This document shows positions 1-43,787 of a stretch of 64,000 nucleotides of DNA, piece after piece. A program made the translations under genes and the position numbers. Each line of letters begins with the position of its first letter. Positions within the stretch are counted from its first letter, which is position 1. The notes beneath the pieces were generated by a model that saw nothing but the letters and a program-made list of their open reading frames with translations, was not told the origin of the DNA and did no database searches. Source of the stretch: a virus (Duplodnaviria > Heunggongvirae > Uroviricota > Caudoviricetes); the IMG/VR virus record IMGVR_UViG_2693429668_000006. One strand, given 5' to 3'.

Positions 1-42
1 CGAGTATTTTTAGTCATCCTGTTTACCTCTTTCTCAGGAAGT

Positions 43-198
43 TTAGTCTCCAGGATTCCCGGGGCGGTTCACTCTCTCAAATATGGAAACGTCTTCTATT
101 CCTCGAAGAATGGCTAACATTTTGACCAGTTCATTAGCATCCATTTCTTCGAATAAGGCGTTTTGTTCATCAGCTATCGCTTTGCATTTCTTGCACAT
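43..198 (-). CDS. small hypothetical protein (51 aa, CKKCK motif), below ORF-track size cutoff
   Basis: ATG at 198 preceded by the conserved translation-initiation context (GGAAAAACACATG) and class-B motif; stop at 43-45. Confidence 0.3.
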   Translation of the reverse strand: MCKKCKAIADEQNALFEEMDANELVKMLAILRGIEDVSIFERVNRPGNPGD

Positions 199-214
199 GT
201 GTTTTTCCTAATGC

Positions 215-235
215 TTAAACAAGTTGTTTTCTTAT
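215..235 (-). promoter_or_regulatory. class-B palindromic motif TTAAACAAGTTGTTTTCTTAT (candidate operator/promoter)
   Basis: one of 7 near-identical copies 20-45 nt upstream of minus-strand start codons. Confidence 0.4.
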
Positions 236-495
236 TGGCTTTATTGTGATGTGGCATAAAAGGGGAGCAAGCTAAACGTAAAGGTGCAAACTCTCTATTT
301 CGGTCAACGAAACACAAGGGCCATTTGGCCCTTGTCATTAACACGTTGCTTTACGGACTAGCGGATAAGCGAAGTAGATCGCCAGACCAATGAGGACGCC
401 ATCAGAAATGACAGACATCATCTTTCCCGTAAAATCCACCAACACCGCTATCACCAGAAGAGCAATGACGGTCACAAGCCGGAATCTCTCAAGCA

Positions 496-921
496 TTAGA
501 GATAAGCATCCAGTGACAACTGAAGCGCCTGGGCGATCTTTTTCAGCGCCTGCTCTTCTGGTTCATCAATGCCGTCCTGGTCGGCAATATCAAGGCACAG
601 ACACAGTACATCTACTGCATCATCAGTCCCGGCCACATCCGCCAGCTCACGTAAAGCCTGGGCATTAGCACGGCGCGGTGAGGCTTCGTATTGAGCGCGG
701 ATATTGGCGCTCATCTGGGCAATCTCACCAGCAAAAGGAGAAAATGCAGGCAGAGCTGCAATTGTTTTCTCAAGAATGGAAATTTCTTTTGCATCGCATG
801 TACCGTTGGCATAGGAGATCATGTACCCGCCCCACACGGTGGCTTCAACCGCATCACGGTTCTCCATTTTTTTGACTTCGATAACAGCTTTACGAGTTTT
901 CTTTTTGAAGAAACCTAACAT
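496..921 (-). CDS. hypothetical protein (141 aa); weak TerB-like resemblance in acidic C-terminal part
   Basis: ORF with conserved initiation context at 921; motif DQDGIDEPEE; class-B motif upstream. Confidence 0.45.
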   Translation of the reverse strand: MLGFFKKKTRKAVIEVKKMENRDAVEATVWGGYMISYANGTCDAKEISILEKTIAALPAFSPFAGEIAQMSANIRAQYEASPRRANAQALRELADVAGTDDAVDVLCLCLDIADQDGIDEPEEQALKKIAQALQLSLDAYL

Positions 922-945
922 GTGTTTTCCTTTTGCTATTTGTCA

Positions 946-961
946 AAACAAATTGTTTTCT
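946..961 (-). promoter_or_regulatory. class-B palindromic motif AAAACAAATTGTTTTCT
   Basis: AAACAA/TTGTTT inverted repeat upstream of start at 921. Confidence 0.4.
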
Positions 962-1014
962 GGTTACATAAATTGCTTACGCAAAGACGGTCAATGCATA
1001 TGCACTAACAACCG

Positions 1015-1203
1015 TCAGAAATAACCAAGTACCGAACCGACTGGAAAAATAAAAATCCCAACTACACGAGCCAAGGTCATGCCAGCCTGAAACTGGAGAT
1101 CACCTGAGCAAACGAGTTTTATAATGTTGGATACCCAACCGGCGGCCATGAGAGCCAGAATTGCCAGCCAAATTTTCCCAAAGTGATTTGAAAGCCAGTT
1201 CAT
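1015..1203 (-). CDS. small membrane protein (62 aa)
   Basis: hydrophobic ORF, two predicted TM segments. Confidence 0.4.
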   Translation of the reverse strand: MNWLSNHFGKIWLAILALMAAGWVSNIIKLVCSGDLQFQAGMTLARVVGIFIFPVGSVLGYF

Positions 1204-2446: not shown

Positions 2447-3031
2447 ATAAACTCCTGAATCAAGCGCCGCGCCGATTTTTTTTCCTCGCGCGTGCGCACA
2501 CGCGTGCGTGTTAATAATTATTAAAATAAACAAATTACTTCCCAGAACAGGTTTTTATAAACCTGAACTGAACGAACGAAGTGAGTGAAGTTCACCTCGA
2601 ACGAAGTGAGAGGTTGTCTTTTCAGGTAATACTCTCCCAGGGAGGTGAGTACAAAATTTCCTCACCAACCTGGTCGTTTCATAACCTGAAAAGTTATGAC
2701 CTAAGTCTACTGCCAGCTTAGGCTTGGGAAGTTATGGATGACAGCACCCCAGAACCGAGATCTTCCCACACTTTATGAAGGGGAGTACTGGATTCAACCT
2801 CTCGAAACACCCCAGACTCGACAATCATAAAGTGACCCTTGTCTCTGCTCACTTTGGTTCCCCCTTCCCCAACCCCTAAACGGTGCCGGTTCTACGCTGG
2901 TAGTGAGCTTTTTTAAACCTGACGCCAGTGACGCTTACCCCCACCCATCAGGTCGAGCCTCCAATCTACGACTGGAAACTATCAGATCTTAGCACTTACA
3001 ATTCACTTTATGAATAGTTTGTACTTATCTA

Positions 3032-3286
3032 TCATTTCGATTGATTATTTTTTCGACCATGTAGTTGAACATTCAAGGCAAACACCTCGTTGATCAACTC
3101 ACCTAAAAGCTGTTCAACAAGTTCGCGATGCTCCCCAAGATGCAAGCACTTAATTGCCCATTCGTACAAGTTGAAAGCCTGCTCACGATCTTTCATCATT
3201 TCACGAGCCTGGGCCAGAAAATCGCTCTCTACGAGCGCAACGACATTAGTCGGGTATGACATGTTGGTTTCCTTAAAGTGGTTCAT
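3032..3286 (-). CDS. hypothetical protein (84 aa)
   Basis: ORF track, same strand as neighbours. Confidence 0.4.
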   Translation of the reverse strand: MNHFKETNMSYPTNVVALVESDFLAQAREMMKDREQAFNLYEWAIKCLHLGEHRELVEQLLGELINEVFALNVQLHGRKNNQSK

Positions 3287-3368
3287 AAAATCGATTTTAA
3301 AGCGTCTGGGAAGGGGTTCTAGTGGATTCTGTAGTGGTGTTCAGGTCTGGGAGTCTCTGATATAAAAC

Positions 3369-3427
3369 AGCCTGCTTCCGTATATTAATAATTAATATGT
3401 AGTTATTTATATATACAGAAGCAGGCT
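3369..3427 (-). terminator. composite hairpin element: 10-bp GC stem (AGCCTGCTTC/GAAGCAGGCT) around 39-nt AT-rich loop, T-rich tail on minus strand
   Basis: perfect inverted repeat immediately downstream of the stop of gene 3449-4042; second copy at 53541-53599. Confidence 0.5.
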
Positions 3428-3448
3428 AATTACAGACGCCAGAACAAA

Positions 3449-4042
3449 CTAAGCAGCCTTCTTTGATGGTCTTTTTTTCCTGATCACATTCGCAGGATCA
3501 TACCCTCCCAGACTTTTCATGACGTCCAAAGGGATCTTGCTTATAGAGTGCCCAGCGTCCTGACAGAATCCTCGAAAAACAACGAGCATACTGCCACCTG
3601 GGTTGATGTTTACTTCTACCTGACCCAGATTTACGTCAGGCTCGACAAACGCTACGCGGCCACCAGACAGAATAATCGTCTCATTCGCACACTCTGTTGC
3701 ACGCTCATACCACTTTGTATCTAGGGATTGAGGAATTAGCATCACTGTTGTAACTCCACGAGCCTGCTCACGTATAGCCGCATCAATCCAGGGGGAGATT
3801 TTGGAGTAGGGTGGATTGAGGAAGGCAATTGTACCTGGCTGTCCCCATTCAGATTTCAAAGCATCACGCTCAACGCCTATGAAATTAGGCAGCTTTGCAT
3901 TGTCCTTGTTGCAGGCAACGTCAACATCAAATGTCACTCCAAGATAACGTTGAATGGCAGAAAACAGCCAGTCAGGTGTTCTCCAGAGGTCACGAAGAGA
4001 GTTGTCGCGCTTTCGCTGTTTGATTTTTTCGGCTGCAATCAT
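3449..4042 (-). CDS. DNA N6-adenine methyltransferase (phage Dam-like family)
   Basis: NPPY catalytic motif (FLNPPYS), WRTPDWLF N-terminal motif typical of phage N6A-MTases. Confidence 0.65.
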   Translation of the reverse strand: MIAAEKIKQRKRDNSLRDLWRTPDWLFSAIQRYLGVTFDVDVACNKDNAKLPNFIGVERDALKSEWGQPGTIAFLNPPYSKISPWIDAAIREQARGVTTVMLIPQSLDTKWYERATECANETIILSGGRVAFVEPDVNLGQVEVNINPGGSMLVVFRGFCQDAGHSISKIPLDVMKSLGGYDPANVIRKKRPSKKAA

Positions 4043-4052
4043 CTTCTTTCTC

Positions 4053-4073
4053 GATAGGTAAGTATATACCTAT
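4053..4073 (-). promoter_or_regulatory. class-A palindromic motif GATAGGTAAGTATATACCTAT
   Basis: recurrent motif family (13 copies) just upstream of minus-strand genes. Confidence 0.45.
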
Positions 4074-4225
4074 TTTTGCATTTGATTTTATGTCTGGCAA
4101 TCAAATAAAACGCGCCAGAAATGCAAACGAGAAGCTCTCTGGCGCGTTTTTGTGGTGCTGGGTATGTGATTGGCTTACCCAGTACTATAAAGCTCTCTAT
4201 GGGCTTTATTTTAAGTAGGGGAACG

Positions 4226-5035
4226 TCATCCAATAGTGTACTCCGCGACAAACTTCTTAACGATCGGTGATTCTTCGTTCAATGTTAGATTTCCACCGTC
4301 TCTAACGGCAATTCCTGTCGCTGGAAATACAGCCATCATTTGCCCAGCCTGAGTTGACGCAGTGTTAAGCGGATACGGTTTTTCTGGATTGCTCATTAAA
4401 GCAATCTTAATACTATTACTTGTAGCCTTCTTTTCTGTGAGAAGGTGTCTCATGGAAATTACCGTGTAAACACTAATATCTGGACCTCCGCTAAACCAAT
4501 TAAGAAGGTTTAATATCTTATCCTTTGCTTTGACAGGCGCGTTATCGTAAGCGTCTAAGAAAATATCTTTTTCTAAGCCCGCTTTATTGAAAAACGAATC
4601 ATCTTTATCACTTAAAGTAAAACGAGGACCTCTTGCAGTACGCGCTTTTTTATTTGTATTGCTATCATTTGACTGTTGAACTTTTAATTCATCATTAACC
4701 TCAACACACTCTTCAACCTCAATAAATCCCAATTGTTCTGGCTCGTTTTCGGCAGCTTCAACACTTTCAGCGTTAATTACGTTTATAGGCTCATGCGCTA
4801 ACTCCAACTCATTTAAAGCAGAGCTGAAATCACCTGCTTTTTCTTCATTGAACAGTTCTTCGGCAACATCATCAGAACTCATGGCTACGCCAGCATCTAG
4901 GCCGAGCAGCAGATCGTCAATATCATCAGTATTTTCAACCTGTGCAGCTTTTTTTACTGGTTCATCAAGTGATTGCAACATGGCTGTCAGCTCGTCCAGA
5001 TCATCATTTGTCATTACATTTTCAACCGAACTCAT
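4226..5035 (-). CDS. acidic hypothetical protein (269 aa)
   Basis: ORF track; Asp/Glu-rich N-terminal half. Confidence 0.5.
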   Translation of the reverse strand: MSSVENVMTNDDLDELTAMLQSLDEPVKKAAQVENTDDIDDLLLGLDAGVAMSSDDVAEELFNEEKAGDFSSALNELELAHEPINVINAESVEAAENEPEQLGFIEVEECVEVNDELKVQQSNDSNTNKKARTARGPRFTLSDKDDSFFNKAGLEKDIFLDAYDNAPVKAKDKILNLLNWFSGGPDISVYTVISMRHLLTEKKATSNSIKIALMSNPEKPYPLNTASTQAGQMMAVFPATGIAVRDGGNLTLNEESPIVKKFVAEYTIG

Positions 5036-5193
5036 GTAAGTCTCCTTCTGTTTGGTTACATTTGCGTTTCGATGGCTGCATTTTGACTAAACCTATCAGG
5101 CGGAAAAGTATTAAATACAGGCAGAAAATGATTGAAAGGCGACTGTTCTTTAAAAAAAAGCCTACTTTAAACTTTTTAAAGTAGGCTTTTGTT

Positions 5194-5751
5194 TTACACA
5201 ATTTCAGAGGGTAATTTAAAAAATCCGTACTTATTACGTGCCTTAAAGAAGCATTGCATCATTAAGTTTGTGTCATATAAGGCACTATGTGCTTTGGCAT
5301 GATCGTATATAAAGCCAAGAGAGAAGGCCAACTCTTCAAGGCGGGGACGTTTACCGTCTTCTGTGGCCCACAATCCCGATAACATAGTATCTATAACAGG
5401 AACTTCTGGCAGTCTTACTCCATACCCTGAAAACTCGTGTCGAATAAATGGTATATCAAATGCTTCGCCGTTATGAGCAACCCACACACTACATGCCCCC
5501 ATATAAGCGCCAATTTCGCTGGCATGATTTGACAACAAAGGTTCAGCTGCGAGCTGTTCCAATGAAATGCCATGAACGGCTTGAGCTTTCGGATCTATGT
5601 TTCTGCGAGGGTTAAAACGCATCTCCAGACTATCAATATGTCTCTGTGTCTCCAGTTCATAGCGGGTAATTGCGATTTCAATAATTTTATGACCAGCAAG
5701 GAAATCCAGTCCCGTAGACTCGATATCGATGCCTGCAACAATCGTTGTCAT
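5194..5751 (-). CDS. DEDDh 3-prime-5-prime exonuclease (DnaQ-like)
   Basis: Exo I GIDIESTGL, Exo II HNGEAFDIPF, Exo III HSALYDT motifs. Confidence 0.7.
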   Translation of the reverse strand: MTTIVAGIDIESTGLDFLAGHKIIEIAITRYELETQRHIDSLEMRFNPRRNIDPKAQAVHGISLEQLAAEPLLSNHASEIGAYMGACSVWVAHNGEAFDIPFIRHEFSGYGVRLPEVPVIDTMLSGLWATEDGKRPRLEELAFSLGFIYDHAKAHSALYDTNLMMQCFFKARNKYGFFKLPSEIV

Positions 5752-23807: not shown

Positions 23808-26147
23808 TTACTCTTCTACTGACTCGGTGGGGTTGTCTTTTGCTCTTCGGTCGTCGATTGCCTGCAAAGCCGCAATGATTTCAGCCAGTGGCTTCTCCCG
23901 ATACATCTCGACGATCTGCGATTTGGTGTATTTCTTGTCACCAATTTCAACTCGCCCGCTGGCGTTCTTTGGCAGGTATCCTTCTTCCAGCATGTACTCG
24001 ACGAGCGATTCGATAACGTCGAGGCCACGAGTAGGATCGAAGTAGAATTTCCAGGTGCATTTGCCATACGGTGGTGCAACTTTGTTTTTGATGCATTCTG
24101 CGCCTACGTCCTGGCCGATCTTCTCTTTACCATCCTTCATCACCGATGCACCAAGACGGATACGTACAGAAGCGTAGAACTTCGGTGAATCTCCACCTGG
24201 CGACGTAGTAGGGTCGCCAAACATTACACCGATTTTTGTGCGAACCTGATTCAAGAAGATGATGCAGGCGTTGTATTTGCGTGCCCACAAAGCCAGAGTA
24301 GGGAAGTTCGCACTCGTCGCACGAGCCAGTGCCGTATTGTCGTTCATGTTTAGCTGATCTTTGTCTTTGGCTGTGCCTTCAGCCATCTTTTCGAACTTCT
24401 CGGCTTTGGAGTTCGGAACCATAGACGCAAGAGAGTCAGCCACGATACAGATAGGTGCTGATTCGGGGATAAGCTCTTCATCACGAACCAATTTAAGTAT
24501 TGTGCCGATCAACTCTACAGAGTCTTCGAAGGTATCTGGCTGCTTGTATACCCACTGACCGTCATCCTCATCTGCGTTCAGGCCATTGGCTACAGCCAGG
24601 CCAACGTCAAAACTGTTTTCATGATCGAGGAATACCGCCAGACCATCTTGTTTTTGAGCGGAGATCATCGCTGCTGTTGCAAGGAATGTGTTGTGGCTGA
24701 TAATCCCGTTAGACCAGAAAGAGTGTGTTTCCGGCATCGCTACGTCGAACGTTGGTGCTTCACCTTCCTCAATAGCCACGACTTCGTCGTAGAACAAGTT
24801 AGAGCCAATTACCGCTGCCAGTTGTGCAAACAGATGCTCGTTAAAACGATTCTTTCTGCCAATGAAGGAGACATAGATTTCTCGCAGTTTGTCTATTCCG
24901 ACACGATCGCCGCGGCCAATAACGTGGTCTACCAGAGCGTAGTCTTCACGGGTGGTCTTGGTGAGCGACTCGTAGAGTGATTTCACTAAGCCGCTGATGT
25001 GCGGAACATAGCCTGAGTAAGTGCGGTCAAAACCAATGTCCCGTTTGGTTGCCACTGATAAACGTGCCGGAGATTCGAAACCAATCGTTGACAGAAAAAG
25101 GTCGTAATTAGAGCCACTGAATGACAGCCGGTAATATGTATTTTCATAACCCGCGACGTGTTTTTCAGAGATAGTTGACGTAATCCCCAGATTCAGGAGC
25201 ATGAGGCGAATTTGCTGTAGCAGCAGCCCACTCGCGCTCACAACCTCAATGCAGCGACCATCATTGACGTGGCATTCCAGCTCAAAGTAGCCGCGAAGGA
25301 ATGCAATTTGAGCCTCGCTATTGGCGCGACGCACACTCAACGGAACCTGCTTGCCAGCAGCTTTCTCATACTCCAGACCATATTCTTTAAAAAGCAGCGA
25401 ACGCACCTCTTTGCTAAACAGCACATGGTCTTCCGAGCCGTTATGTTTTCTCGTAACTGGCATCTTGTCTGATACCAGCGAAATGAGGCGGTAGTACTCA
25501 TCCTTGATGAAAGGATCTGTGTTAGAAAAATTCACTGAATTTTCAGAGGCCACGTATCCGTCAGCAATTAAATAGCCCATCAGTTTTGCGATATTGGCAT
25601 CCAGGTGCTGATCGCCGAATTGATGTGTGCCAACCATTGAAGGAATCGTGTCGCCTACACTGATTTTTTCAGCATGTCGCCAGACGACATTACCTAAGTC
25701 GTCAACCACACGGATTGGGTGACGGAACGTAGCCTCGATATAACCGCCTGATGCCAGCTTAATACGCTTGAATTTGCGACGGTTGTTCCATGTCAGGTGT
25801 GAGGTCTTCTCTATCACGCCATTTTCATTGATGAGTCCAACGTTATGCTCTACATCGCGAGTAGTGCATGTCGCTTTGTACCCTTCAATCTCAAACAACT
25901 CTTTCACTGTTACCATTCCACGCTCCGTCAGCAGCATGGTGTCTGCGGTAACACATTTCCCCGCGCTTGGTGGCCCGAATACTTCTACGATACGACCACA
26001 TGGGAAACCGCCATCGTAACGACCGGAAATAGCTTTGTTTAACGGAGGAAAGCCTGTGTCAATCCAATGAGTTACTTTCTGAATTTCGTCGTTGCTACCG
26101 ATTTTCTTTTTCAGAGCAAGTGCCAGTGCGGATTTTCCTTTTGCCAT
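23808..26147 (-). CDS. recA: RecA-like recombinase precursor interrupted by an intein
   Basis: exteins (64 + 293 aa) carry RecA motifs GRIVEVFGPPSAGK|TF, FLDHENSFD, IIFLNQVR; insertion inside Walker A. Confidence 0.8.
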   Translation of the reverse strand: MAKGKSALALALKKKIGSNDEIQKVTHWIDTGFPPLNKAISGRYDGGFPCGRIVEVFGPPSAGKCVTADTMLLTERGMVTVKELFEIEGYKATCTTRDVEHNVGLINENGVIEKTSHLTWNNRRKFKRIKLASGGYIEATFRHPIRVVDDLGNVVWRHAEKISVGDTIPSMVGTHQFGDQHLDANIAKLMGYLIADGYVASENSVNFSNTDPFIKDEYYRLISLVSDKMPVTRKHNGSEDHVLFSKEVRSLLFKEYGLEYEKAAGKQVPLSVRRANSEAQIAFLRGYFELECHVNDGRCIEVVSASGLLLQQIRLMLLNLGITSTISEKHVAGYENTYYRLSFSGSNYDLFLSTIGFESPARLSVATKRDIGFDRTYSGYVPHISGLVKSLYESLTKTTREDYALVDHVIGRGDRVGIDKLREIYVSFIGRKNRFNEHLFAQLAAVIGSNLFYDEVVAIEEGEAPTFDVAMPETHSFWSNGIISHNTFLATAAMISAQKQDGLAVFLDHENSFDVGLAVANGLNADEDDGQWVYKQPDTFEDSVELIGTILKLVRDEELIPESAPICIVADSLASMVPNSKAEKFEKMAEGTAKDKDQLNMNDNTALARATSANFPTLALWARKYNACIIFLNQVRTKIGVMFGDPTTSPGGDSPKFYASVRIRLGASVMKDGKEKIGQDVGAECIKNKVAPPYGKCTWKFYFDPTRGLDVIESLVEYMLEEGYLPKNASGRVEIGDKKYTKSQIVEMYREKPLAEIIAALQAIDDRRAKDNPTESVEE
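24690..25955 (-). mobile_element. intein (422 aa) with LAGLIDADG homing-endonuclease domain
   Basis: starts Cys (CVTADTML...), ends ...SHN followed by Thr; LAGLIDADG-type motifs LMGYLIADGYV and AFLRGYFELE. Confidence 0.8.
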
Positions 26148-28566: not shown

Positions 28567-28998
28567 TCAACGGGGAGTAATAAAGCGTTCAGAGCCTAAT
28601 CGCTCTAATTCAACGATGGCCATCTTTGACGCCTGAACGATCATGTCTCGGCGATGCGAAAAGGCGGCGACAGCATGTTTGTATATGTCTGCGATGTGCC
28701 GTGCTTCATCCAACTTCTGCCGTTTAGACAGATACTGTGGGTTTGTTTTAACCTTAGCGTCCAGTACAGACTCGTTGAACTTAATGCCGTTCATACTCAA
28801 GTTCTTACGCTCTGTGTCGTATAGCTTTGCTTCAACAGCTTCAAGGTTAAGTTTTGCCTCTGCGACATCTCGATCTGCCTGCGCTAGTTTTGACCCATAC
28901 TCCATTAAAAGCCGTGGCTGTTTACGCCATACTTCCTCAAGGTTGTCGCGGTCGAACTCCAGATCGGCCATGATTTTAGAAAAAATATCAGTGTTCAC
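28567..28998 (-). CDS. hypothetical coiled-coil protein (143 aa); possible UvsY-like mediator
   Basis: size and position next to SSB/recombinase genes only. Confidence 0.35.
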   Translation of the reverse strand: MNTDIFSKIMADLEFDRDNLEEVWRKQPRLLMEYGSKLAQADRDVAEAKLNLEAVEAKLYDTERKNLSMNGIKFNESVLDAKVKTNPQYLSKRQKLDEARHIADIYKHAVAAFSHRRDMIVQASKMAIVELERLGSERFITPR

Positions 28999-29253
28999 TC
29001 TAATAGGTTCCTACTTATAAAATCTGTATCAATTATATCAAACAGAGAACGGGTTTATGGCGTCATGTCAACTTTGTTCAGGGGAAAAATATTGAGATCA
29101 CCGAAGATAATTAGTTGTCTTATTTTGGTAAGCTGTGCTGACCATCTTTAGGTCACATACATGAGATGGATGGGGGTGTGGCATGAACGGATGAAATTCA
29201 GTCGCCGTTGACAGATGTCAACACTGTGAATAGAATACTATTATCGGAGGCGA

Positions 29254-29478
29254 ATGAAGCAACATCCGAATAAGCATATTCAAGCAGCCATTGACTATGC
29301 ATTAAGTAAAGGCTGGATCTGGGTAGCAGCTGGTGGTGCTGCACATTGTTTTTGCAGACTGCGATGCGGTAATCCAGAAGGTGAACACAAAACTCACCAA
29401 ATGAGCGTATGGTCGACTCCGGGTAATCCCGAAAACCATGCCAAACAGATCAAACGAATGGTTGATCGTTGTAAATGA
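29254..29478 (+). CDS. small hypothetical protein (74 aa); possible HicA-like toxin
   Basis: plus-strand island; His/Cys-containing basic protein; weak pattern only. Confidence 0.3.
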   Translation: MKQHPNKHIQAAIDYALSKGWIWVAAGGAAHCFCRLRCGNPEGEHKTHQMSVWSTPGNPENHAKQIKRMVDRCK

Positions 29479-29538
29479 TTTCAAGGCGGCATTAGCCGCC
29501 TTTTGCAGAAACTGTCCAACTATCTTCAAAGGAAAACT

Positions 29539-30102
29539 ATGGCGCTTTATAACTTCACTCTGACGCTCTCAGGCGTATCGTATGAGACGGAAGGACTGGA
29601 AGACGCGCTGTACCAAAACGGCTGTGACGATGCGCTAATTTGCGCATATGGAAACTCCGTCTATGTAGAATTTGACCGCGAAGCACAATCACTTGATGCA
29701 GCTATCGCATCTGCGGTCGACAATATTGAATCAGCCGGTATCGGTGCAATTGTTGAATCCGTCGACTCGGCTCTTGTGGGCTTAAGCGATATCGCGGAAC
29801 TGACAGACCTGTCTCGCCAGGCAGTGGCGTTGCTCAAAGACGGTAAGCGCGGAAGCGGCGACTTCCCTTGCCCTGTACAACGCATAAAAGGCCAGTCTCC
29901 TCTCTGGGATTGGGCTGATGTGGCTGAATGGCTCATGAATAACGGACGACTTAAAGAGGGCGATCAAATTGTCCAAAATGCCCGAACTTTGAGTAAATGG
30001 AATCTGGCGCTTCGAAACAGCGTCTCGAAAGATTTCAACGAAATAGAGCAAATTGCGGAGAAACTGATTAAACGCCGCAAAGATATTGCGAAATGCGCAT
30101 AA
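29539..30102 (+). CDS. hypothetical protein with C-terminal HTH-like segment; possible HicB-like antitoxin
   Basis: ATG at 29539 with RBS; C-terminal ...LSRQAVALLKDG...WADVAEWL helix-turn-helix-like pattern. Confidence 0.35.
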   Translation: MALYNFTLTLSGVSYETEGLEDALYQNGCDDALICAYGNSVYVEFDREAQSLDAAIASAVDNIESAGIGAIVESVDSALVGLSDIAELTDLSRQAVALLKDGKRGSGDFPCPVQRIKGQSPLWDWADVAEWLMNNGRLKEGDQIVQNARTLSKWNLALRNSVSKDFNEIEQIAEKLIKRRKDIAKCA

Positions 30103-30431
30103 TGATGCCCGCCAATTGGCGGGCATCTGTTCTCTGTAAAGGTGTCTGGCATCGTCTGGTTCGTTAACGTTTACTAAACCAATGGTGACAAAAATTAGTT
30201 ATCTTTGAAAAATAAAGGTTGCATGAAAAGAAGGGGTATGCGTTAATAGCATCGTTGGTTTGCAAGACAGACCTTATGTAAGCAGTTTTAGTAAAGCAGT
30301 CTCAGTTCAGTGTTATCTTCTGATTTCCCTTCTTCGTGAGTCTCCTCCTTAAGTGCCTAAGTAAGTCCCAATCTATACAGATCAAATTCTCGCCGCACTA
30401 TGTGGCTCACAAAATTAAGAAGGTAATATCT

Positions 30432-30647
30432 ATGTCTAATAAAATGACTGGTTTAGTAAAATGGTTTAACTCTGATAAAGGCTTTGGCTTTATTTCTCCT
30501 GCTGATGGCAGTAAAGATGTTTTTGTACATTTTTCGGCAATTCAGAGTAATAATTTCCGCACTTTGGAAGAAGGCCAGCAGGTCGAATTCTCTATCGAGA
30601 ATGGGGCTAAAGGCCCAGCAGCAGCAAATGTCGTTGCTCTAAGCTGA
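30432..30647 (+). CDS. cold-shock protein (CspA family, 71 aa)
   Basis: RNP1/RNP2 motifs KGFGFI and VFVHF; GLVKWFN start; ~190-nt leader upstream. Confidence 0.85.
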
Positions 30648-30925
30648 TTCAACGCTGATGATCCTCATTTCTACAATAACGAAGACGGTGTAAGCCTGAG
30701 TGGATAGATTTGTAGGATTGTACAAGTTGAATAAATTAGCATGGTAAGGCCATGCTAATTAAATCGACACAACGGCCAGTTTATTCCATAAAAGTGAATT
30801 GCCCATTGTGGCGAAATGCGGGGTTGCCGCATGAATAGTCAAAGGCAGAAGCTAACTGCCGGCATGGCAAAACAAAGTGCGTAAGAGGAGTGACTTCCTC
30901 AACAAGCGCCATAATTCTTTATAAA

Positions 30926-30950
30926 CCCGCCAACAGGCGGGTTTTCTTTA
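30926..30950 (+). terminator. rho-independent terminator
   Basis: hairpin CCCGCC-AACA-GGCGGG followed by TTTTCTTT; between convergent csp and dnaE. Confidence 0.6.
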
Positions 30951-33900
30951 TTACTTATTTATTGTCTCCGCGATATCAGCCAGAATGGCCTCCAGTCGCT
31001 CTCCTTCTTCCGGTCGGAAGTACAGGATATTCGGGTTAAATCCGTAGAAGACGGTTGCATCAAGCTCTGGGAAGTACTCCTTACGACCAATCAGATCTGA
31101 TGGTTTACTCTTATTGTTAAATAGTGCGGTTGAACGACTACCACACGTCAAAATGTAGGTTGGTCGTACAAGATTAATTTCTTCCCGCATAAAGTCTGTG
31201 AACTGGCCTATCTCGTCTTTGGTATAGTCTTTCTCTTTGTCCTTAACCTTCTTACAAACACCCGTGACATAAAGATCGCCCATGCGCAGATCTCCAACTG
31301 TCAGTAGTTTTGCCTTAAAGTCGTCGTATCCGTTCTCCATGAAGTAGCCGGTACGAGCGTCATTGCCGTTCGCATTGTCCAGAATGATCATGATTTTGGG
31401 TTTAATACCAATAGTCGGGCGTATCAACTCCTCACCCAAGCCCATTTCAGCCGCCATACGTGTCATGAGTACGTTGATTTCGGCAGAACGCTTAGGATTC
31501 ATTTCGAACGGACGTGATGCTTTAACAGCGTCAATGATGAGATTGCCCATCAGCTCAGCCTGGTCGCGCAGTCGTTCAGGATCAGTTGCTGGCAGACTGC
31601 CTGGCTCAATTGACGCAAAAGCCCCTACTTTATGAAGCGACTCGCGTACACGACTGTTACATGCACGCTTCTCGACCGCTTCATCGAATTGTGCCACTGA
31701 CTCGAATTTGCCACCAACTTTCTCACGCGCACGCATAATTGCCTGACAACCATTTTCAGAACAGCCTTTCACAGCAGAGAATGGCGCATACAGTGCCTGA
31801 CTGCCGTCTTCGAGTGTGCGGATCTCAATTCGGTTAGATGACACATTAACGTCTGGTGGCAATACGCGAATGCCATAGGTCAGCGCATCCTTCACCAGCC
31901 CCTGATGCTTATCCTCGCCCAGAATGGTGAGCGCAGCTGCGAAGAACTCAGCAGGGTAGTGCGTCTTTAGCCACATAGACTGATAACTGATTAAAGAATA
32001 AGAAACGGAGTGTGATTTATTGAACTGATAGGCTCCGTTTTTCTCAAATGCGGTCCAGATCTCCTTCGCTTTCATCTCTGATAGCCCTGGATGTGACGCT
32101 GTAACGCGTACTGCGTTTATAGGTAGTTTTGCGCCGTGCTCAAGTGCCTCTTCGACAGTTTTCAGAGTTCCGTCTTCGCATTTAAAATGTTCCGCACGGT
32201 GAATGCGCTGTGTAGTGCCATCTTCCAGCTCAACGTCTATCCAGCCAGCTTGAGCCTGAACGATGAACTTCTCGCCCATGCTCTTCATTTTTTCCATGTT
32301 CTTCTTACCGATTGCGGAACGCACAGCGTCAGCTTCAGCCATTGTGAAGCCGGCAAGCAATCGAGTCGCGTTCATCGTCTGTTCCTGATAGAGAATCACG
32401 CCATTTGTTTCCGCGGTAAGTTCATCAAGAACGGGGTGTAATGATTCCGGCGTCATAAAGCCTTTGGCGACAGAAACATAGTCATCCAACATGCCTGATT
32501 GAATTGGCCCCGGCCGGAAGAGCGCAGTTGTAGCGACGACCGTTTTAAAGCTCATTGGCTCAATTCCACCACCTAAATCTTTAAGCAGCTTGCGCATTGG
32601 GCCTGATTCAAGCTGGAAAACACCTTGAGTGTACCCAGCAGCAAAACCATCCAGCACCTTGCGATCTTCAAGAGAAATGGCATCAAGATTGATATCTTCA
32701 CCTGTGTTCTCTTTTATGTAGCGTTTTGCACTATCGAGCAAATCGAGAGTTGCCAGGCCAAGCACGTCCAGCTTAATTAGGCCCATAGCCTCGCAGTAAC
32801 GCTTGTCAAATGCGATACAACGCGCGTCACCACGGCGCTCAACCGGTGTACGTTCTGTCAGAGGAACACCTGCTACGATCATCCCTGCCGCATGTCTACC
32901 AAAGCCACGCATAAGGCTTTGTAACTTGCAGGCTGCATTGAATGCATCAGGATATTTTGTTGCGTATTTGTCGAGACTTGCCAGTTGTTCGCGCAGTTCT
33001 TCCAATGGAAGGCTATCATCCTCAGCGTTCTTCAGTTCTTTTGATACCGCCATATCTGCGGACTCCACACCATAAATACGAGCGGTGTCACGTAGTGCAG
33101 AGGCTGCGCCCAGGTAGGTGAAGTTCGGAATGCCTGCAACGTAATCTTCGCCGTAGCGTTCATTCAGATACTCGATCACCTCATGGCGACGTGCCTGGCT
33201 GAAGTCCAAATCCGCATCTGGCAAGTCGAGACGCTCAGGGTTGATGAAACGTTCAAACAGAAGACCGTGACGGATAGGGTCGACGTTGGTTATGCCTATG
33301 CACCATGCCACCAAAGAGCCAGCGGAGGAACCACGACCAGGCCCGACAGGAATGCCAGTTTCACGGCTGTGATTCATCAGATCGCGTACCATCAGGAAGT
33401 AACCACAAAATCCCAGGCGAGTAAGCGTGTCCATTTCGTACTTAAGTCGCTCAACATAAACCCTGTTCTCAGAAGCCGGTGGTGTGTATCCAAACTCTTT
33501 TGTGGTAAGACGTTTACGCAGCCCTGCAACAGCCAGTTTCATCAGCGTTGCAGGTTCGTCGTCTGCCATCTTGGGCAGTGCTGGTGGCAATTCATGCCAG
33601 CGCCATGTACAGGCTTCGATAATGGAGTCCTGCGTTGTTGAGGCCATTGCAGCTGTTACCGGCACATCCATGCGAACGGAGAAGGCTTTAAGCGCCTCAA
33701 GGAGATGGCGGCGACCATTGACGGCGTTATCTCGCTGGTGGGGTATACGCAGACGATGCGGCTGGTCGATTTTTATGTTGTTCGTAACCATGTGCGCAAT
33801 GTCTTTAATGTCTGCATCGTCGATCGATTCGTAATAAGCGGGATAGAACGCTACTGGCTCTATTTTCAGTGCGCTGGCTACTTTCATCGCTCGGACGTTA

Positions 33901-34469
33901 ATCTGGTCGTAGAATGGGGTAGGGTGCGGATAAACCACGCTATAGAAGTTGTCTTTCCCGCCCGCTGTAATCAGTGAGCTTATGATTTTTGCAAAATCGT
34001 TGCGTTGGAACACGCTACCGATGTCGGAAGTGAGCAGGATGATGTTGCCTTTGGCATATGTAGAAACCAACTGTTCGAGCGAGAGACGCGGTACAAAGTA
34101 GAACTGTTCTCGTGTGTTGGCCACCGTCATTAGTTCGCAGATGTCGCGATATCCTTGCTCATTTTTAATTAGAGCGGTAAACGAGTAGTTACGTCCCCGC
34201 TCTAATGATTCCATACATCTCATAGATTCTTTAGCAAGTTTAGCCCGGTGCTCGTATGTGGGATCATCAACGATATTTAGTTTCACACCACAAATAACCG
34301 CCATGTCGTCACCAGCGGCACGTTGTAGTGGAATAACACTCGCAATATTCATGCTATCTGCTGAAATTACAGCGGTGTAGCCAGCTTCTCTGGCAATCTT
34401 CACCGCGTTTTCTGCTTTTAGAGCCGACTCCCCAAGTGAGAAGTCAGTTCGAACCATCAGTGCTTTCAT
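30951..34469 (-). CDS. dnaE: DNA polymerase III alpha subunit (DnaE-type, PHP domain N-terminus)
   Basis: 1172 aa; Pol III alpha core (GPGRGSSAGSLVAWCIGITNVDP), degenerate PHP N-terminus; ATG at 34467-34469. Confidence 0.8.
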   Translation of the reverse strand: MKALMVRTDFSLGESALKAENAVKIAREAGYTAVISADSMNIASVIPLQRAAGDDMAVICGVKLNIVDDPTYEHRAKLAKESMRCMESLERGRNYSFTALIKNEQGYRDICELMTVANTREQFYFVPRLSLEQLVSTYAKGNIILLTSDIGSVFQRNDFAKIISSLITAGGKDNFYSVVYPHPTPFYDQINVRAMKVASALKIEPVAFYPAYYESIDDADIKDIAHMVTNNIKIDQPHRLRIPHQRDNAVNGRRHLLEALKAFSVRMDVPVTAAMASTTQDSIIEACTWRWHELPPALPKMADDEPATLMKLAVAGLRKRLTTKEFGYTPPASENRVYVERLKYEMDTLTRLGFCGYFLMVRDLMNHSRETGIPVGPGRGSSAGSLVAWCIGITNVDPIRHGLLFERFINPERLDLPDADLDFSQARRHEVIEYLNERYGEDYVAGIPNFTYLGAASALRDTARIYGVESADMAVSKELKNAEDDSLPLEELREQLASLDKYATKYPDAFNAACKLQSLMRGFGRHAAGMIVAGVPLTERTPVERRGDARCIAFDKRYCEAMGLIKLDVLGLATLDLLDSAKRYIKENTGEDINLDAISLEDRKVLDGFAAGYTQGVFQLESGPMRKLLKDLGGGIEPMSFKTVVATTALFRPGPIQSGMLDDYVSVAKGFMTPESLHPVLDELTAETNGVILYQEQTMNATRLLAGFTMAEADAVRSAIGKKNMEKMKSMGEKFIVQAQAGWIDVELEDGTTQRIHRAEHFKCEDGTLKTVEEALEHGAKLPINAVRVTASHPGLSEMKAKEIWTAFEKNGAYQFNKSHSVSYSLISYQSMWLKTHYPAEFFAAALTILGEDKHQGLVKDALTYGIRVLPPDVNVSSNRIEIRTLEDGSQALYAPFSAVKGCSENGCQAIMRAREKVGGKFESVAQFDEAVEKRACNSRVRESLHKVGAFASIEPGSLPATDPERLRDQAELMGNLIIDAVKASRPFEMNPKRSAEINVLMTRMAAEMGLGEELIRPTIGIKPKIMIILDNANGNDARTGYFMENGYDDFKAKLLTVGDLRMGDLYVTGVCKKVKDKEKDYTKDEIGQFTDFMREEINLVRPTYILTCGSRSTALFNNKSKPSDLIGRKEYFPELDATVFYGFNPNILYFRPEEGERLEAILADIAETINK

Positions 34470-43540: not shown

Positions 43541-43616
43541 TGGTGCCGGTTAACGGACTTGAACCGCTGGCCATTTGCTTACAAAGCGACTGCTCTACCA
43601 ACTGAGCTAAACCGGC
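43541..43616 (-). tRNA. tRNA-Thr (anticodon UGU), two mismatches in anticodon stem
   Basis: 76 nt; acceptor/D/T arms canonical; loop TTTGTAA; possibly pseudo-tRNA. Confidence 0.6.
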
Positions 43617-43620
43617 AATT

Positions 43621-43707
43621 TGGTGGGGAGTGATGGAGTCGAACCACCCGAGTCGCAATGACAGTAGATTTACAGTCTACACCGCTACCTCTACGGACTA
43701 ACTCCCC
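43621..43707 (-). tRNA. tRNA-Tyr (anticodon GUA)
   Basis: 87 nt; anticodon arm GTAGA-CTGTAAA-TCTAC; long variable arm. Confidence 0.8.
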
Positions 43708-43712
43708 TAAAT

Positions 43713-43787
43713 TGGCGATGGTGGGTGGATTCGAACCACCGATCAGTTGGTTAACAGCCAACTGCTCTACCGCTGAGCTACACCATC
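43713..43787 (-). tRNA. tRNA-Asn (anticodon GUU)
   Basis: 75 nt; anticodon arm GTTGG-CTGTTAA-CCAAC; T-arm GGTGG-TTCGAAT-CCACC. Confidence 0.85.

Follow-up and report, generated by a model that had tools for sequence, protein, structure and literature searches.

HicAB toxin–antitoxin (TA) loci of classes 1, 3 and 4 (Gerdes 2024, PMC10865869) offer the nearest described design to the gene pair considered here. In these loci, the gene of a small protein comes first and that of a larger partner second, the two are tightly linked or overlapping, and a palindromic operator lies within the promoter. [quoted passage not shown] A second point of reference is PDC-M06, a gene pair catalogued in PADLOC-DB v2.0.0. 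PADLOC PDC entries are computational defence candidates without experimental support (PMC12409345), and our literature search found no paper mentioning PDC-M06 and no published phage-protection test of it. Among cold-shock genes, cspA, cspB, cspG and cspI of E. coli combine a cold-shock domain (CSD) protein with a cspA-like promoter and a long 5′ untranslated region matching the full Rfam RF01766 model.

Here we analyzed a locus within a 64,000-nucleotide stretch of DNA (the window) that is 99.8% identical to Escherichia phage Cyrano; the source element is an SSU5-type phage-plasmid of E. coli. The locus carries a gene pair, A and B, followed by a cold-shock gene, csp. The pair belongs to the catalogued PDC-M06 pair and follows the HicAB design in gene order, linkage, partner layout and promoter-embedded palindrome. 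It departs from HicAB in having no detectable sequence homology to HicA or HicB, in a ferredoxin-like rather than partial RNase H partner domain, in an excisionase/AlpA-type winged helix in place of the HicB DNA-binding domains, and in a conserved Cys/His insert and N-terminal HPNK motif in A, for which toxicity or an RNase role is putative here. We put at about 0.5 the probability that the locus joins an autonomous, self-regulated and TA-like two-gene module of an uncharacterized family to a separate, cold-inducible cspA-family unit.

Results

Two independent cassettes share one variable slot

Three plus-strand genes interrupt a minus-strand backbone, as an earlier note on this DNA had reported, and all of their reading frames are present (Table 1). 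The minus-strand flanks comprise a UvsY-like gene (28567–28998) and a gp32-like SSB gene on one side and the gene for the DNA polymerase III alpha subunit (dnaE, 30951–34469) on the other. The interval from the UvsY-like gene to dnaE is a variable slot, which contains both the A/B pair and csp in this element.

This slot carries two independent cassettes, the pair (29207–30127) and the csp unit (30188–30950). In SSU5 the pair is syntenic and csp is absent; a Klebsiella pKpn-type plasmid has csp and lacks the pair in the same slot; and Cyrano has both. The pair ends in a terminator-like hairpin of its own, and the three genes therefore do not form one operon. Only the csp cassette deviates in GC content, at 0.38–0.42 compared with 0.45–0.52 for the pair and the backbone.

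The earlier note had instead read all three genes as one acquired module for stress or addiction. The idea of one island, in which the cold-shock protein cooperates with the pair, draws on the adjacency of the genes, on their common orientation against the minus-strand backbone and on the csp region being at least 99% identical in 63 E. coli plasmid records. However, the pair and csp each have a promoter and a terminator of their own, differ in GC content and occur one without the other in this very slot. Moreover, the immediate neighbors of the pair are unrelated between 80 genomes, with CSD not among the recurrent families, and csp instead accompanies lambdoid prophages, in which its cassette lies between Q and S. 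Taken together, these observations make a joint island very improbable, and we treat the pair and csp as separate cassettes.

Table 1. Features of the A/B and csp cassettes (window coordinates).
Feature	Position	Strand	Evidence or proposed role
Perfect palindrome GTTGACA-GA-TGTCAAC, including the −35 hexamer	29207..29222		Putative operator bound by the winged helix of B
Promoter (sigma-70) of A/B: TTGACA and TAGAAT, 17 nt apart	29208..29236	+	Promoter scan, 11/12 matches
Ribosome-binding site of gene A, GGAGG	29246–29250	+	Sequence
Gene A, 74 aa, putative toxic/effector component	29254..29478	+	PADLOC PDC-M06A and PHROG 5923 matches
Hairpin between A and B: AAGGCGGC-ATTA-GCCGCCTT, then TTTG	29483..29502	+	
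Gene B, 187 aa, putative neutralizer and autorepressor	29539..30102	+	PADLOC PDC-M06B and PHROG 2620 matches
Terminator-like hairpin closing the pair's unit; 10-bp stem (8 GC), weak T tail	30104..30127	+	
csp promoter region: AT-rich UP-like stretch, −35 TTGCAT (30219–30224), extended −10 TGcGTTAAT (30239–30247)	30188..30247	+	
csp 5′ untranslated region, ~178 nt, cspA thermoregulator family	30254..30431	+	Rfam RF01766
csp, 71-aa CspA-family cold-shock protein	30432..30647	+	Pfam CSD, NCBIfam CspG
Structured non-coding 3′ element with terminator	30804..30950	+	Conservation, predicted pairing

A and B travel together as a mobile pair

Relatives of A numbered 698 in a search of 1.84 billion cluster representatives, and 307 stretches encoding such a relative were found in a species-level genome collection; members occur in Proteobacteria, Planctomycetes, Verrucomicrobia and Balneolales. 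In 78 of 80 genomes, which range from Enterobacterales to Planctomycetes, a same-strand B homolog comes next after A, as expected of two tightly linked genes that are always kept together. The pair is also present on a 108-kb Y. pestis contig and in 313 plasmid records, 295 of them non-mobilizable and, among the matches listed, mostly of ~110 kb. Elsewhere it occurs in phage-plasmids, a P4-like island, a P2-like prophage and the chromosomes of several phyla. Its 106 immediate neighbors carried 130 Pfam families, none of which was seen more than twice. Such a patchy spread among unrelated neighbors is that of a mobile cassette.

The adjacent genes A and B match the PADLOC models PDC-M06A (1.2 × 10⁻¹⁹) and PDC-M06B (1.3 × 10⁻³²), which places them in that catalogued pair. 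In contrast to the defence label of PDC-M06, only 4 of the 106 immediate neighbors in our sample match PADLOC defence proteins. At two loci inspected by hand, in the P4-like island and the P2-like prophage, the pair adjoins TA genes of the RelE and YoeB/YefM types.

The two genes also decay unequally. Nonsense or frameshift mutations in A with an intact B were found at five loci (L027, L055, L069, L073 and L078), two of them in metagenome-assembled genomes, where assembly errors are possible, and truncated A variants exist in E. coli as well (P0031 and P0054). No locus with an inactivated B beside an intact A was found among those examined. Thus, comparative genomics supports a TA-like design of the pair, with A as its putative toxin.

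Protein A and the HicAB comparison

A is small and His/Cys-rich, in agreement with its first description as a 74-aa His/Cys-containing product. Its AlphaFold2 model (pLDDT 87) has an alpha-beta-beta-(short helix)-beta-alpha topology, with H31 directly before strand 2 (a placement from secondary structure only) and an insert with Cys and His between strands 2 and 3. In a 66-member alignment, H4, K7, W21, H31, C38, T55, P56, A63 and C73 are at least 90% conserved; A also has an HPNK motif at its N-terminus. A would thus be a small alpha-beta-beta-beta-alpha protein; judging from conservation, it is probably stabilized by zinc through C38, H45/H48 and C73, and H4, K7 and H31 would be its candidate catalytic residues. 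A Foldseek search of the PDB with the model gave nothing significant (best E = 0.64). Weak matches to the RuBisCO small subunit, as weak as the likeness to HicA, were seen in 21 of 27 close and 6 of 66 diverse A-family members.

The GenBank record of Cyrano labels A and B as HicA and HicB, and the earlier note had also seen a weak resemblance to that family in the order and sizes of the genes. The pair might then be a genuine, highly diverged HicAB system, with A an mRNA interferase and B its antitoxin. Besides the annotation, this reading can point to the alpha-beta-beta-beta-alpha topology of A, with H31 at the place of the catalytic His of HicA as far as secondary structure tells, and to a gene order and B layout resembling those of class 3 and 4 hicAB, the short B forms resembling class 1 (PMC10865869). 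HicA proteins have also diverged so far that the E. coli HicA profile misses other solved HicA structures. Against it, no HicA or HicB model of Pfam or NCBIfam, an HMM check that the earlier note had itself suggested, matched any of 93 A-family entries or 32 B-family members. The A entries were 27 close and 66 diverse ones, the window protein being counted in both sets; all were scanned with Pfam (E ≤ 1–10), and NCBIfam was applied to the window protein and to the 66 diverse entries, while the 32 B-family members were scanned with Pfam. Phmmer and profile searches of the PDB for HicA and HicB likewise found nothing, and Foldseek recovered no HicA. An hhalign comparison of A with an E. coli-type HicA profile aligned only 23 columns, out of order, at 67% probability, a test of low power given the structures that this profile misses. 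Finally, the Cys/His insert between strands 2 and 3 of A is extra to HicA, which lacks the zinc site that it is predicted to form. We therefore did not assign A to the HicA family (PF07927), whose model it does not match, nor B, with its ferredoxin-like N-terminal domain, to the HicB antitoxins. A diverged HicAB system is improbable in our judgment, whereas the TA-like order and sizes of the genes stand, joined by a TA-like regulation.

Protein B and its putative operator

B comprises an N-terminal ferredoxin-like domain (~1–75), an excisionase/AlpA-type winged helix (~79–135) and two C-terminal helices. The length of 187 aa first given for B is correct; its DNA-binding segment, formerly placed at the C-terminus, is central and is followed by the two long helices. 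In the structure model, the N-terminal domain has the beta-alpha-beta-beta-alpha-beta topology of ferredoxin-like folds, and the winged helix is of the terminase/excisionase type. The N-terminal domain of ~75 aa is the conserved portion of the family, and 14 loci encode a short B (ORFs of 81–158 aa) without the winged helix.

The −35 hexamer of the strong sigma-70 promoter of the pair is embedded in a GTTGACA-NN-TGTCAAC palindrome with 7-bp arms, which was found by script. Among loci whose B has the winged helix, 59 of 64 have an operator-like site (≤3 mismatches) upstream of A, mostly ~45–55 nt ahead of its start. All 14 short-B loci gave only background-level matches to the palindrome, with 5–7 mismatches (the commonest background value being 6). 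From this comparison we infer that DNA-binding B autoregulates the pair through a palindromic promoter operator, with GTTGACAGATGTCAAC as its putative binding site.

The tie between operator and winged helix also fits a non-toxic regulatory module, in which B would be a transcription factor that regulates itself and perhaps controls other genes. Its ferredoxin-like domain, which is ACT/RAM-like, would sense a ligand or A, and A would be a co-regulator or a metal-binding accessory. The conserved Cys and His residues of A suit metal binding, and NCBI names B merely a "DNA-binding protein" or "helix-turn-helix transcriptional regulator". Yet what the family conserves is A together with B's N-terminal domain, and since the 14 short-B loci have no DNA-binding domain, regulation cannot be the ancestral function. 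The scattered, cassette-like distribution among unrelated neighbors and the other TA genes beside the pair in mobile elements also speak against a regulatory module, and the selective loss of A with B kept fits a toxin, not a co-regulator. We accordingly consider a purely regulatory pair unlikely and retain the TA-like module as the preferred reading.

The spacer between the genes holds a further feature. Most Enterobacterales-type loci whose spacer measures ~45 nt or more have a GC-rich hairpin immediately past the stop codon of A, with sequences that differ between loci; a further 16 loci instead show a 4-nt overlap of the two genes. The hairpin of the window may bring about partial termination or stabilize the mRNA. 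A U-run hairpin between A and B, as in Enterobacterales, would reduce the level of B compared with that of A, and this sits uneasily with an antitoxin role of B.

The csp cassette is ordinary and ends in a structured element

The csp product is the clear cold-shock protein that had been recognized earlier, with matches to Pfam CSD (1.4 × 10⁻³³) and NCBIfam CspG (146.6 bits, cut-off 144) and with the RNP1 and RNP2 motifs (KGFGFI and VFVHF). It is closest to CspG and CspB; the gene lacks annotation in the Cyrano GenBank record, and plasmid copies are named CspG by PGAP. Its leader is of the conserved cspA regulatory type, as had been supposed. RF01766 matched positions 30254–30672 over model positions 1–428 with 185.7 bits (E = 9 × 10⁻⁵¹, gathering score 78), a cold-box-like sequence, UGCAAGACAGA, lies at 30261–30271, and the leader is ~88% identical to that of the Klebsiella plasmid, where the promoter region is conserved too. 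The leader is long, as first noticed; from the start of the Rfam match to the ATG it measures ~178 nt rather than ~190 nt. The promoter layout is that of E. coli cspA.

The stability of the csp leader is unexceptional (minimum free energy z = −0.39), and equilibrium folding from 10 to 42 °C did not open the ribosome-binding site. The known cspA switch is kinetic, and equilibrium folding of the leader is therefore uninformative about temperature-dependent control of translation. With its cspA-like promoter and thermoregulator leader, the cassette would be cold-inducible and would supply an RNA chaperone at low temperature. Lambdoid and Qin prophages carry a homologous cspB cassette, the Qin cspB locus corresponding to the whole csp cassette, 3′ element included. 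The csp cassette lies between replication and recombination genes of an SSU5-type phage-plasmid here and between Q and S in lambdoid phages. The cassette itself is thus ordinary.

A strong terminator after csp, also described before, is indeed present, as an intrinsic terminator at 30923–30944 that is apparently usable from both strands. It lies 275 nt beyond the csp stop codon, with a conserved structured RNA in between. There, a 9-bp closing stem (30805–30813 with 30908–30916), upstream of the terminator, encloses several hairpins and an invariant single-stranded stretch, GCAAAACAAAGUGCGUAAG, at 30867–30885. Compensatory changes occur at five of the 39 predicted pairs, and a pair is broken in one sequence only. 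The element likewise follows cspB in the Qin prophage of E. coli K-12 and occurs in 1,715 of 5,426 complete E. coli genomes, K-12 included, with no annotation under any listed match. A conserved ORF in this region was rejected; stop codons break all frames on both strands in the Klebsiella and lambdoid copies. Searches of the region for tRNAs and Rfam families gave no match. By conservation and covariation of its predicted pairs, the element is a previously undescribed structured RNA. It may be a new structured RNA in its own right or a 3′-UTR-derived small regulatory RNA.

Discussion

The earlier note had named a lack of TA-family homology, together with a lack of toxicity, as evidence against its TA proposal. 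Strictly, the pair shows no such homology, yet context, operator and gene decay still favor a TA-like mechanism. In such a mechanism, the ferredoxin-like domain of B would bind and neutralize A, and the winged helices of B dimers would contact the palindrome, repressing the operon. Once released from B, A would damage the cell, perhaps through HicA-like RNA cleavage. The winged helix of B would have been a later gain of some lineages, acquired together with the GTTGAC-N4-GTCAAC operator. On a phage-plasmid, the pair would penalize plasmid loss (addiction), exclude other phages, or both.

A more specific proposal, to which we give somewhat less than even odds, is that A and B found a widespread TA family with a zinc-stabilized, dsRBD-like toxin A and a ferredoxin-domain neutralizer B. 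SSU5/pMT1/Cyrano-type phage-plasmids would carry the module for addiction and/or phage exclusion, and the csp 3′ element would separately be, perhaps, a novel structured RNA or a 3′-UTR-derived small RNA.

The pair is now mislabelled as HicAB in GenBank or goes by "hypothetical protein" or "DNA-binding protein". The link between winged helix and operator and the selective decay of A yield predictions that can be tested directly across a family of hundreds of members. Phage-plasmids of the SSU5, pHCM2 and pMT1 types are common among E. coli, Shigella, Salmonella Typhi and Yersinia pestis, and the basis of their stable inheritance is poorly defined; a conserved TA-like module in their backbone, under its own putative control, is a concrete candidate for it.

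Two independent cassettes share a variable slot

The three plus-strand open reading frames, with minus-strand genes on both sides, lie where the earlier note had placed them. They encode a 74-aa protein (A) and a 187-aa protein (B), together the pair, and a 71-aa cold-shock protein (csp). Positions 28900–31300 of the window match Escherichia phage Cyrano (OV696614.1, 108 kb) at 99.8% identity, and the record of that phage includes an integrase, a repressor, a P1 Cra-like protein, CobS/CobT-like proteins, a gp32-like SSB, UvsY and DNA polymerase III alpha. Salmonella phage SSU5 carries the pair at the same position. Plasmid records with the pair numbered 313, 295 of them typed as non-mobilizable; those among the best matches listed were mostly ~110-kb E. 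coli plasmids, and the genera represented were Escherichia, Enterobacter, Yersinia, Citrobacter and Klebsiella. This plasmid distribution agrees with the SSU5 supergroup of phage-plasmids (PMC7969092).

Flanked by the UvsY-like gene and dnaE, the slot holds the pair without csp in SSU5, csp without the pair in a Klebsiella pKpn-type plasmid and phage pJN2-26, and both in Cyrano and many E. coli plasmids. It is therefore a variable slot that gathers independent plus-strand cassettes. The pair has a near-consensus promoter, a terminator-like hairpin of its own and a backbone-like GC content (0.45–0.51), and csp has a separate cspA-like promoter and leader within an AT-rich cassette (0.38–0.42). 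With each cassette also found alone, the single three-gene island proposed earlier is abandoned: the pair and csp are not one module.

Elsewhere in the window, three tRNA genes form a cluster (Rfam tRNA 75.4, 63.8 and 41.6 bits). The Cyrano CDS annotated as RecA, at 2,340 nt, exceeds twice the length usual for RecA; the Klebsiella counterpart at that position bears the annotation LAGLIDADG homing endonuclease, and the Klebsiella dnaE region has an HNH endonuclease, which together suggests inteins or homing endonucleases in replication and recombination genes.

Coordinates of features in the window and in compared stretches
Feature	Position	Strand	Details
Cyrano 'RecA' CDS	~23808-26147	-	L001 (Cyrano) 2909-5248
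LAGLIDADG annotation	L007 (Klebsiella) 1-1039		
HNH endonuclease	L007 6382-7077		
Palindrome	29207-29222		perfect
Promoter of the pair	29208-29236		TTGACA, 17 nt, TAGAAT
A	29254-29478	+	74 aa
Hairpin 3' of A	29483-29502		
B	29539-30102	+	187 aa
Terminator-like hairpin of the pair	30104-30127		
csp promoter region	upstream of 30254	+	AT-rich stretch, TTGCAT, TGcGTTAAT
Rfam cspA thermoregulator match	30254-30672		full model
csp	30432-30647	+	71 aa
Perfect 9-bp hairpin	30736-30758	+	TTAGCATGG-TAAGG-CCATGCTAA
3' element	30804-30950	+	copies: L211 1501-1637; L007 ~4600-4750; L008 ~1880-2024
Invariant 19-mer	30867-30885		
Terminator	30923-30944		
tRNA cluster	43544-43787	-	three genes

The csp gene is ordinary and is followed by a conserved 3' element

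The csp product is, as first described, an unambiguous CspA-family protein; PGAP names identical plasmid copies cspG. The gene is absent from the annotation of the Cyrano record, which has no feature between its 'HicB' and DNA polymerase III alpha. The promoter region has the layout of the E. coli cspA promoter, and the leader measures ~178 nt rather than the ~190 nt first given. The Rfam match scored 185.7 bits (gathering score 78), and the leader is ~88% identical to that of the Klebsiella plasmid, more conserved than third codon positions of the coding region. Equilibrium folding revealed neither unusual stability (z = −0.39) nor any response of the ribosome-binding site to temperature, but it is uninformative here because the known cspA switch is kinetic. 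The proposed CspA-type regulated leader is supported by conservation and the full Rfam match; gene and leader together are ordinary and already known.

The strong terminator reported after csp is present, but 275 nt past the stop codon. It closes a 3' element that is ~93% identical between Cyrano and the Klebsiella plasmid, more conserved than the csp coding region. In the lambdoid phages Tritos, HannyBb and 2H10 the element likewise follows csp, at a site between genes Q and S, and in the E. coli K-12 prophage Qin it lies 3' of cspB. Of 5,426 complete E. coli genomes, 1,715 contain it, and none of the 30 matches listed overlies an annotated feature. The 3' region yielded no conserved ORF on either strand, no tRNA and no Rfam match, and no description of the element was found. 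RNAalifold predicted 39 pairs, which form a 9-bp closing stem, the internal hairpins and the terminator. In 5 of the 39 both partners have changed in a compensatory way, and a pair is broken in one sequence only. This covariation, drawn from three lineages and not statistically strong, is suggestive of a conserved structure. With its invariant, single-stranded 19-mer and, after that, a U-tailed terminator, the element fits a 3'-UTR-derived small regulatory RNA or a stabilising 3' domain. Upstream of it lies a perfect 9-bp hairpin that is conserved in neither the Klebsiella nor the lambdoid copies; a weak Rfam mir-2187 match there was dismissed as spurious.

The pair represents an uncharacterised family, and its HicAB label is rejected

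The pair belongs to an uncharacterised family already catalogued in PADLOC, where both proteins match candidate system PDC-M06. No mention of PDC-M06 was found in the literature, and according to PMC12409345 PDC entries have never been verified. The exact proteins are listed at NCBI as 'hypothetical protein' and 'DNA-binding protein', each on at least 1000 contigs. The structure model of B (pLDDT 91) has three parts: an N-terminal ferredoxin-like domain, a winged helix that resembles the domains through which small terminase subunits and excisionase/AlpA proteins bind DNA, and two long C-terminal helices; the helix-turn-helix earlier assigned to the C terminus is central in this model. The A family comprises 698 cluster representatives (E ≤ 1e-3) with the signature HPNKxI...A..YA...GW....G...H.(W/F)G.L.C(P/G).....(C/H)..SV.STP..PE.HA..I.R.VD.C. 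In A, C38, position 48 (His in the window protein, Cys in most family members) and C73 look like a putative zinc site.

The earlier note had likened the pair to HicA/HicB, and the Cyrano GenBank record labels A 'HicA toxin protein' and B 'putative antitoxin HicB'. Neither window protein matched a HicA/HicB model in Pfam or NCBIfam. Nor did such a model match any A-family member searched (27 close and 66 diverse in Pfam, 66 in NCBIfam), 32 B-family members gave no HicB match in Pfam, and PDB sequence and profile searches were empty. Besides these missing matches, HicAB membership is rejected because B has no HicB-type partner domain. The pair resembles HicAB classes 1, 3 and 4 (PMC10865869) in architecture, not by homology; A may have a distant fold-level kinship with HicA. 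In Pfam, 21 of the 27 close A-family members gave weak hits below threshold to the small subunit of RuBisCO (best E = 1e-4), and one Shewanella homologue carries that name at NCBI; the likeness is probably chance or analogy.

A and B travel as a two-gene cassette

In a scan limited to one genome per species, 307 stretches encoded a relative, and 80 of these were analysed. A B homologue lay directly 3' of A on the same strand in 78; one exception was at a contig end and the other had a B-like ORF too divergent for the profile. Conservation of B centres on its first ~75 residues. In 14 loci, from Planctomycetes, Verrucomicrobia, Latescibacterota and Cardiobacteriaceae, B is a short ORF (81–158 aa) without the winged helix, and only its first 70–80 residues match; in Pasteurellaceae, Acinetobacter and Neisseria it is ~150 aa and lacks the C-terminal helices. 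The 106 immediate neighbours fell into 130 Pfam families, each occurring at most twice, and four of the neighbours matched PADLOC models. Among loci inspected by hand, the pair adjoins a RelE/HTH pair in a P4-like island and YefM/YoeB in a P2-like prophage.

Five loci (L027, L055, L069, L073 and L078, two of them metagenome-assembled genomes) have A broken by nonsense or frameshift mutations and B intact; the mutations differ and are therefore independent events. The converse decay was not seen among the 80 loci.

In Enterobacterales a GC-rich hairpin, often with a U-run, directly follows the A stop codon. Its structure is kept while its sequence differs in most Enterobacterales-type loci with a spacer of at least ~45 nt (intergenic regions of L011–L064); other lineages have a 4-nt A/B overlap instead, found in 16 loci. 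If transcription ends at this hairpin, the balance would tip towards A and away from B, an odd arrangement for an antitoxin and an awkward one for a toxin-first operon. Alternatively, the hairpin may make the A transcript more stable, or a separate promoter may drive B.

A palindrome, GTTGACA-NN-TGTCAAC, encloses the -35 hexamer of the pair. A site with at most 3 mismatches in 14 positions lies upstream of A in 59 of the 64 loci with a winged-helix B, mostly ~45–55 nt from the A start, whereas all 14 short-B loci have background-level matches only (5–7 mismatches; the commonest background value is 6), which ties the winged helix to the palindrome. This distribution implies a predicted autorepression of the pair by B. 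In the Y. pestis NCTC5923 copy (L022, a 108-kb contig), A and B are both intact and one operator half, ~47 nt upstream of A, has degenerated (GTTGACACGCGCTCAC, 4 mismatches); this copy may no longer regulate itself.

Judged from their sequences, A/B loci behave as a selfish two-gene toxin-antitoxin cassette with A as the putative harmful partner, and a toxin-antitoxin-like mechanism, to which we assign a probability of about one half, is the best-supported reading of the pair.
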